Shown here: piece after piece, positions 19,519-19,810 of the stretch | How positions within the stretch are numbered: position 1 is the stretch's first letter | How the letters are laid out: each line of letters opens with the position of its first letter | Source: Escherichia coli | Lineage (GTDB): Bacteria > Pseudomonadota > Gammaproteobacteria > Enterobacterales > Enterobacteriaceae | Strand: one strand, 5' to 3' | DNA length: 64,000 nucleotides | Assembly: GCF_013315695.1 (NCBI RefSeq) | Contig: NZ_CP054353.1 | The notes under the pieces: generated by a model | The model's input: only the letters and a program-made list of their open reading frames with translations | What the model was told of the DNA's origin: nothing | Database searches by the model: none | Position numbers and translations under genes: made by a program

Positions 19519-19810
19519 TTAATCAGTTTTACATTATTTCATAAAAAGTTGGCGCATTAGAAATCATACTATTTTTCAAGTCAACACAAAAAAGCATCTT
19601 TAGATAAAATTATTTATTATCAAAAAAAATACAACCTACTGAAAAATATGTTTTTTCACAATTCAACATAATCAATTTTAGGAATATATTAATATTCATA
19701 ACATCAATAAATAATATTATTTCAATCATGCGATTTATATTTTAACAATGGCATACGCATGCATAAAGTGGTATGATAACTTTGTCCGCATTCCACTCCT
19801 GGAGACGCAT
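19519..19810. promoter_or_regulatory. Very AT-rich control region holding the fimbrial operon promoter (minus) and the exuR promoter (plus)
   Basis: About 290 bp, largely A/T with long A- and T-tracts, between the divergent chaperone and exuR starts. Confidence 0.5.

Follow-up and report, generated by a model that had tools for sequence, protein, structure and literature searches.

The spacer at positions 19519-19810 of the window, a stretch of 64,000 nucleotides (64 kb) of Escherichia coli DNA, lies between the first gene of an acquired fimbrial operon and exuR, the gene for a hexuronate regulator. This spacer is probably a composite of two regulatory units, which arrived together with a fimbrial island of about 5.4 kb, of the alpha type (also called 'CS1-like' or Eaf), between exuT and exuR. 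The unit next to exuR (19742-19810) would be a self-contained exuR promoter, made of the hexamer ATGGCA, an 18-bp spacing, the extended -10 element TGgTATGAT, a leader of about 27 nt and the sequence GGAG. An ExuR/UxuR operator placed over the -10 element and the start site would keep exuR autorepressed and inducible by hexuronates. This module has taken the place of the ancestral exuR promoter, operator and leader, with the same layout and another sequence. The remaining part (19519-19741; 223 bp, with a G+C content, GC, of 20%) would act as promoter and long leader of the fimbrial operon, which is most likely held low by H-NS, like other AT-rich acquired chaperone-usher operons, and probably switched on by a chromosomal signal other than an activator of the Rns/CfaD type. 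As an AT-rich control region upstream of an acquired fimbrial operon, most of the spacer is ordinary, and both operon and locus were already catalogued. The new detail, a modest one, is the conserved 69-bp promoter-operator that came with the island and replaced the native one of exuR.

The two genes are divergent, with the ATG of the chaperone gene on the minus strand at 19518 and that of exuR at 19811, and the spacer between them measures exactly 292 bp. A first-pass annotation, made from the letters of the window, had given this distance as about 290 bp and had described the two promoters as standing back to back, both of which agree with the present data, in which only 2 bp separate the predicted -35 hexamer of one promoter from that of the other. 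Its description of the spacer as almost pure A/T is right as to the AT-richness and overstated as to the degree. The GC content is 25.3%, compared with 50.1% for the whole window, the window-wide minimum falls here, and equally AT-rich segments make up 0.12% of all 292-bp segments in the 64 kb. The spacer contains the homopolymers A5, T5, A6, A8, A5 and T6. Its composition is uneven, however, as the 223 bp at 19519-19741 have 19.7% GC and the 69 bp at 19742-19810 have 43.5%. The elements of the latter part, together with exuR, are the following:

19742-19810, plus strand: island-type exuR promoter-operator-leader module, 43.5% GC.
19748-19753, plus strand: predicted exuR -35 hexamer, ATGGCA (TTGGCA in allele L009); TGGCAT is invariant in the alignments.
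19765-19783, plus strand: putative ExuR/UxuR-type operator, AAAGTGGTATGATAACTTT, over the predicted -10 element; in all island alleles it begins 46 bp ahead of the exuR start codon.
19769-19777, plus strand: predicted exuR extended -10 element, TGgTATGAT, at an 18-bp spacing; the start is expected near 19784.
19801-19804, plus strand: exuR Shine-Dalgarno sequence, GGAG, read from the sequence.
19811-20587, plus strand: exuR, 258 aa, a GntR/FadR-type hexuronate regulator (NCBIfam ExuR equivalog, 564 bits with a cut-off of 396).

The evidence for a replaced exuR promoter comes from the comparison of ten island alleles, including those of Escherichia sp. MOD1-EC7003, Escherichia sp. E13S3 and an island-bearing E. 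fergusonii. The module is 87-100% identical among the eight alleles that were scored and is conserved in the other two, while the adjoining AT-rich part is 50-93% identical. Genomes lacking the island carry another leader of 50 bp, which is near-invariant: the K-12 sequence shares 49 of 50 positions with Salmonella, 46 of 50 with E. fergusonii and 45 of 52 with Enterobacter. The scored island leaders, in turn, share 47-49 of 50 positions with one another and only 36-41 of 52-53 with the ancestral leader. Because the island-free taxa have this different and near-invariant leader, the island must be considered to have replaced the native promoter, operator and leader of exuR. Both haplotypes occur in E. 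fergusonii, where an island-free genome (L015) has the ancestral leader and an island-bearing one (L028) has the island-type leader; as far as these sequences tell, the exuR module and the island travel together. The 49 of 50 identities between K-12 and Salmonella enterica subsp. salamae were found although the ExuR proteins are only about 89% identical between genera, which suggests that the ancestral leader is under strong constraint beyond the operator.

The combination ATGGCA-18-TGgTATGAT is the only promoter predicted in all eight of the scanned alleles. In the ancestral leader, likewise, no promoter element other than the counterpart TGgTATAAC is conserved across the range from E. coli to Enterobacter. 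For exuR of K-12, a different promoter further upstream, TTTTCA-16-TAAACT, has been predicted (PMC3946193), which is not conserved in the other genera compared. The NCBIfam ExuR match begins at residue 22 of a longer open reading frame starting at 19748. The in-frame ATG at this position lengthens the exuR reading frame to 279 aa, the length of some database 'ExuR' entries (P0005, P0036). Since the predicted transcription start lies 3' of this ATG, the 279-aa extension is probably not made.

The operator was assigned by its similarity to other sites of the exu regulon. Near matches of AAAGTGGTATGATAACTTT occur at only two further places in the 64 kb:

12592-12610, minus strand: operator-like site on the uxaC side, AAATTGGTGTGATAACTTT, most closely related to the exuR operator of the island type.
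12773-12790, plus strand: exuT-side operator-like site, AAAGTTGTATGACAAGTT, recognized by sequence likeness.

The exuR operator and the uxaC-side site are identical at 17 of 19 positions, where 0.01 such matches would be expected by chance per 64-kb window, and at 28 of 35 over a longer stretch. The site at 19765-19783 is also the top-scoring one in the window with a matrix built from four sites, itself among them. According to papers citing that work, genetic mapping has placed exu operators in the control region between uxaC and exuT. The literature presents ExuR and UxuR as cross-regulating autorepressors (PMC9369180), and the UxuR regulon lists exuR (PMC5934670). The island module shares with the uxaC, exuT and ancestral exuR sites a 19-bp element of the AAAGT-N9-ACTTT type. 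In the module this element lies over an extended -10, in the layout of the ancestral exuR leader, and a bound repressor would occlude the promoter there if the predicted promoter positions are right. The island module differs from the ancestral leader in its sequence and in being inherited with the island, and the binding of ExuR or UxuR to it is predicted. The similarity to the uxaC leader (28 identities over 35 nt, compared with 24 for the ancestral exuR leader) raised the possibility that the module is a simple duplication of the uxaC promoter, which is not supported, as the likeness stops upstream of the operator. Past the 19-mer, GTC(A/C)GCAT is common to the uxaC and island exuR sites, and TCTGCCGT to the exuT and ancestral exuR sites; this shared sequence hints at a longer functional element, or else at descent of the exu promoters from one ancestor. 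With a score of 15.7, GGAGTGGTACGATAACTAT at 49749-49767 ranks fourth among the hits of the operator matrix; by the annotation transferred from E. coli MS 21-1 it falls inside the antitoxin gene prlF, and the match is probably due to chance.

The island is bounded by the exuT terminator on the left and by the Shine-Dalgarno region of exuR on the right:

14344-14367, plus strand: exuT terminator hairpin, GAAGCCGCC-TTTTCA-GGCGGCTTC, kept at the left junction; read from the sequence.
14368-19797: fimbrial island, about 5.4 kb, 44.4% GC.

On the left, homology to island-free genomes stops just past the terminator hairpin, which is common to K-12, E. fergusonii and E. coli HS-02. On the right, the match to genomes lacking the island resumes only at 19798, which is 13 bp short of the exuR start codon, and 25 differences from K-12 are found within 19760-19805, compared with a divergence of about 4% inside exuR. 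The genes exuT and exuR are adjacent in K-12-type E. coli, in the enterotoxigenic E. coli (ETEC) strain H10407, in E. fergusonii (L015), in Salmonella enterica subsp. salamae (L016) and in Enterobacter kobei (L017), and the absence of the island is therefore the ancestral state. These comparisons define the exact junctions of the island and the candidate elements it contains. The suggestion of the first-pass annotation that the insertion could have altered exuR autoregulation is borne out insofar as the native promoter, operator and 5' untranslated region have given way to other sequence as far as about 13 bp from the ATG. On the other hand, an ExuR/UxuR-type operator over the -10 element is kept in every island allele, so that autoregulation has probably been preserved rather than lost, while promoter strength and operator affinity may differ. 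As a consequence of the leader swap, island-bearing and island-free strains have two types of exuR promoter. This polymorphism could shift ExuR levels and the responses to hexuronates, which matters given the link of ExuR to the control of colonization and virulence.

A rare haplotype is found in E. coli HS-02 (L024 3955-4094, corresponding to window position 14367 joined to 19720), which has lost the fimbrial operon together with most of the AT-rich region and has retained the island-type exuR module. The module has TATAAT instead of TATGAT as its -10 hexamer and carries a 3-nt insertion (GTCTGCCGC). The ExuT and ExuR proteins of HS-02 are identical to those annotated in MS 21-1, and partial matches of this kind were seen in 3 of 1,916 genomes.

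The AT-rich part of the spacer shows a different pattern, with few conserved elements in fast-evolving DNA:

19519-19741, minus strand: AT-rich promoter/leader region of the fimbrial operon, 19.7% GC, fast-evolving, 50-93% identical among alleles.
19716-19745, minus strand: best candidate fimbrial promoter, TTAAAA, 18 bp, TGaAATAAT; prediction only.
19637-19645: motif TTACTGAAA, invariant in all aligned island alleles.
19678-19685: motif TTAGGAAT, invariant in all aligned island alleles; the minus strand reads ATTCCTAA.
19622-19629: A8 tract, A7 in five otherwise close alleles.

The candidate promoter TTAAAA-18-TGaAATAAT is present in five of eight alleles, with its -35 hexamer 2 bp from that of exuR; transcription from it would begin near 19709 and produce a leader of about 190 nt. 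The motifs TTACTGAAA and TTAGGAAT are invariant despite about 50% divergence of the surrounding DNA, and ATTCCTAA resembles the right half of an RcsAB box. No Rfam family matched in the spacer. Regulation by H-NS is suggested by the composition of the region and by precedent, which together make silencing the most likely default state: the GC content is 19.7% at 19519-19741 and 44.4% in the island, compared with 50.1% in the window, and the island is laterally acquired and absent from the outgroups. The f9 operon of strain CFT073, with a leader of 251 nt, is silenced by H-NS binding, as are cryptic chaperone-usher operons of K-12 (PMC3966885). With these operons the present one shares the AT-rich promoter region, a plausible long leader, the lack of a dedicated regulator gene and low expression in the laboratory.

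Several observations weigh against the composite reading. No published transcription-start, footprint, chromatin immunoprecipitation or reporter data for the locus were found in the literature. The operator assignment depends on likeness to sites of the control region between uxaC and exuT, as well as on conservation, and the conservation of the 69-bp module could in part reflect its linkage to exuR rather than selection on the module. On the fimbrial side, the promoter scan of eight alleles found no fimbrial promoter common to all of them. The high-affinity 10-bp H-NS motif TCGATAAATT has three hits in the AT-rich region at no more than two mismatches, which is not an enrichment, and other parts of the window hold more matches. 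Furthermore, transcripts of the usher and pilin genes of the CS1-like operon, differing between groups, have been detected in Shiga toxin-producing E. coli (STEC) other than O157 (PMC6033998), so that the operon is not fully silent in the laboratory.

The operon controlled from this region consists of four genes, all on the minus strand:

18802-19518, minus strand: periplasmic chaperone, 238 aa, the first gene of the operon.
18272-18772, minus strand: major pilin of the CS1 type, 166 aa (Pfam Fimbrial_CS1, PF04449, E 1.4e-23).
15497-18181, minus strand: usher of the TcfC type, 894 aa from the RefSeq start; the longest open reading frame reaches 18199.
14418-15500, minus strand: tip adhesin or pilus initiator of the CfaE/CblD family, 360 aa, as annotated in RefSeq.

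The usher (NCBIfam TcfC, 543 bits) and the chaperone (NCBIfam TcfA, 134 bits) both score under the equivalog cut-offs, so that these two assignments hold at the family level only. The NCBIfam matches of the major pilin (CblA/TcfB) and of the tip adhesin (TcfD) are below cut-off as well, while the adhesin matches Pfam CblD (PF07434) with an E value of 3.7e-99. The gene order chaperone-pilin-usher-tip adhesin, the CS1 pilin, the CblD minor subunit and the usher of the TcfC/CooC type are those of the alpha clade and of class 5-like operons. A close protein kinship to CFA/I, CS1, CS2, CS4, CS14, CS17, CS19 and PCFO71 was not found: in tblastn comparisons the chaperone is 37% identical to CfaA, 33% to the CS1-type chaperone CsoB and 33-37% across CfaA, CsoB and CsdB, and the best models are Tcf and Cbl. 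Judged by these sequence comparisons, the operon is a class 5-like relative within the alpha clade and not an ETEC class 5 fimbria.

The same locus had been described before. The 'CS1-like' operon corresponds to ECSE_3375-3378 in strain SE11 and is also present in E24377A, HS, ATCC 8739, 536 and SMS-3-5 (Oshima 2008, PMC2608844). Under the name eafABCD it was reported from E. coli W, with its place given as 'between exuT and exuR' (Archer 2011, PMC3032704). As cited in PMC6033998, it is also counted as one E. coli chaperone-usher type of Wurpel 2013. The window holds one allele of this operon, with the same four genes at the same locus, and its strain-variable presence was already known. In this cataloguing literature on the CS1-like/eaf operon, no analysis was found of the regulatory region, of the junctions or of the effect on the exuR promoter. 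The chaperone gene, the spacer and exuR occur together in 1,908 of 5,426 complete RefSeq E. coli genomes. The AT-rich part is present in 1,916 of them, divided into two allele groups, one of 233 genomes at least 90% identical to the window and one of 1,683 genomes at 60-80%.

Among the alternatives to the composite reading, the one put forward in the first-pass annotation is that the operon belongs to class 5 and depends, against H-NS, on an AraC-family activator of the Rns/CfaD type; with no such gene close by, it would be cryptic, or else under an Rns-like regulator from another part of the genome. The annotation was right that no AraC-type gene lies in or beside the island, and in the corresponding 64 kb of MS 21-1 none is annotated either, the regulators there being exuR (GntR), yhaJ and tdcA (LysR), tdcR, agaR and antitoxins. 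The gene order, the protein families and the AT-rich upstream DNA are those of class 5 or alpha fimbriae, Rns dependence is documented for ETEC class 5 fimbriae, including all known class 5b promoters (PMC2579436), and ETEC E24377A, which has this operon (PMC2608844), also carries rns. In class 5b promoters, one Rns site lies by the -35 element and a second about 70 bp upstream in the opposite orientation, and real sites are at least 67% identical to the core consensus TATTTTTTTATC (PMC2579436). The spacer was scanned for matches to this 12-nt core, with dinucleotide shuffles as reference, and for the 70-bp two-site arrangement. It contains a few matches of 9/12, although none reaches 10/12, and the counts at 9/12 or better (5, with 3.0 +/- 1.8 in shuffles) are near those of shuffled sequence; at 8/12 or better there are 22, with 14.2 +/- 3.8 in shuffles. 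The best matches fall at positions that differ in the other allele group, and no two-site architecture is feasible, as the only correctly oriented pair would put the start inside the chaperone gene. DNA resembling rns, cfaD, aggR or csvR was detected in 208 of the 5,426 genomes, almost always on plasmids, compared with about 1,910 that carry the operon, which leaves roughly 1,700 or more carriers without such a regulator at the level of similarity detectable in DNA. Compared with the Rns/CfaD-dependent ETEC operons (CS1, CS17, CS19, PCFO71 and CFA/I; PMC2579436, PMC5554520), the present one has the same gene order, a CS1-type pilin, a CfaE/CblD adhesin and AT-rich upstream DNA. It differs in being chromosomal, in a chaperone only 33-37% identical to CsoB and CfaA, in lacking the proximal and distal Rns pair, in having Tcf and Cbl rather than Cfa and Coo as its closest NCBIfam models, and in that most host genomes lack an rns-like gene. 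The general rule that class 5 operons need an Rns/CfaD-type activator is documented for the ETEC fimbriae and may not carry over to this distant alpha-clade relative. Nor is the missing activator a peculiarity of this copy: in Yokenella, Chimaeribacter and Enterobacter mori, where the nearest relatives occur, the operon is not flanked by an AraC gene either, which makes the absence of such a gene typical of the subfamily and not a loss. Published RNA sequencing data on CfaD in H10407 (PMC5554520) were considered as a natural test and set aside as uninformative, given that this strain lacks the island. More distant AraC proteins of the core genome are still conceivable as activators. Taken together, dependence on Rns or a similar activator is unlikely, and it makes a poor working hypothesis for an operon that a third of E. 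coli genomes carry without an Rns-type activator. As the control region has no Rns architecture, its regulation is better sought among H-NS and chromosomal factors.

The remaining alternatives concern the spacer itself. One of them is that both promoters are controlled by ExuR or UxuR from the operator at 19765-19783, some 20 bp past the candidate -35 element of the fimbrial promoter, with galacturonate and glucuronate inducing the fimbriae together with exuR. Formulated from the side of the island, it would have brought its own ExuR/UxuR-operated divergent promoter unit, with one hexuronate-sensing operator governing exuR and the fimbrial operon. Gut galacturonate or glucuronate would then induce an adhesin, and island-bearing and island-free lineages would differ in exuR dosage and hence in all traits under ExuR control, including virulence regulation in attaching-effacing strains. 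This proposal gains from the joint inheritance of the island and the operator-bearing module in all the alleles and species compared, from the distance of 2 bp between the two predicted -35 hexamers, and from reports, cited in PMC9369180, that ExuR controls virulence and colonization on galacturonate in enterohemorrhagic E. coli and Citrobacter. Autorepression of exuR is nevertheless enough to account fully for where the operator lies, since the ancestral leader of island-free genomes is laid out in the same way; the position of the fimbrial promoter is a prediction, and no exuR-like gene lies beside the operon in its nearest relatives outside Escherichia (Yokenella, Chimaeribacter and Enterobacter mori). 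The window allele has a weak inverted operator-like site at 19557-19575, but its score is within the range of shuffled sequences (the fraction reaching it is 0.17-0.67), its position is not conserved and it is missing from other alleles. A search for a second ExuR operator in the AT-rich part, as repression by looping would involve, likewise returned best hits within the range of shuffles and without conservation, and the 13-nt inverted repeat I2 turned out to be this same weak site. With no second operator found, a link between the fimbriae and hexuronates through the spacer is possible and unsupported; joint control by one operator, from either side, is decidedly improbable, and the coupling of the two promoters claimed by the first-pass annotation finds no support. 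Still less probable, to the point of being a long shot, is a phase-variable or tunable expression of the fimbriae by slippage in the A8/T8 tract (19622-19629), which would change the spacing of an alternative promoter, TTTTCA-18-GATAAT (19645-19616). The tract does sit in the spacer of this predicted promoter, A7 would yield the optimal spacing of 17 bp, and the five close alleles differ from the window in having A7, in the case of JBEHAAB-19-0176 as the sole difference. Yet a run of seven or eight A residues is short for slippage at high frequency, the majority allele group has neither the tract nor the -10 hexamer, and assemblies commonly differ by one base in homopolymers through sequencing error. 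The T run at 19527-19530 has a second length difference, attributable to slippage or to a homopolymer assembly error. A classical fimbrial switch, either an invertible element like fimS or a Dam/Lrp methylation switch like that of Pap, has next to no chance of operating here. Many E. coli fimbrial operons use such switches, and the spacer does contain several short AT-rich inverted repeats. However, these are 9-20 nt long and 83-100% complementary, as expected at 20% GC, no GATC occurs at 19117-19855 and the island has no recombinase gene; neither paired GATC sites nor repeats accompanied by a recombinase are found in the spacer region.

Outside this locus, a scan of genome contigs for a possible donor found close relatives of the operon only in Escherichia, plus two contaminated records. 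The latter, the Lachnospiraceae metagenome-assembled genome SFGN01000125.1 and a contig of Bradyrhizobium sp. RP6, contain near-identical E. coli fimbrial and exuR sequence, almost certainly by assembly contamination. The next relatives have chaperones 48-54% identical and lie at unrelated loci, between gyrA and rcsC in Yokenella, beside an HTH_46 protein in Chimaeribacter and beside lysR/lysA in Enterobacter mori. Their upstream spacers are also AT-rich relative to their own genomes. The nearest operon outside Escherichia is that of Yokenella regensburgei (8001-13213 of L025), inserted between gyrA and rcsC-rcsB. Given the likeness of the invariant motif TTAGGAAT to half of an RcsAB box, a connection with the Rcs system is a possible lead.

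The annotation of the window genes was transferred from E. coli MS 21-1, with which the window is colinear at 99.8-99.97% identity. The order of the genes is uxaA-uxaC, exuT, the four minus-strand fimbrial genes, and exuR-yqjA-mzrA. The segment 59866-60631, near agaB/kbaY, has no alignment to MS 21-1, where 294 bp are found instead, and represents an indel or a divergent segment. Finally, an E. coli protein of 222 aa (P0148), annotated as a GntR regulator, combines a GntR domain (PF00392) with a chaperone domain (PF00345) and resembles a chimera of exuR and the chaperone gene, produced by a rearrangement or a misassembly at the spacer.

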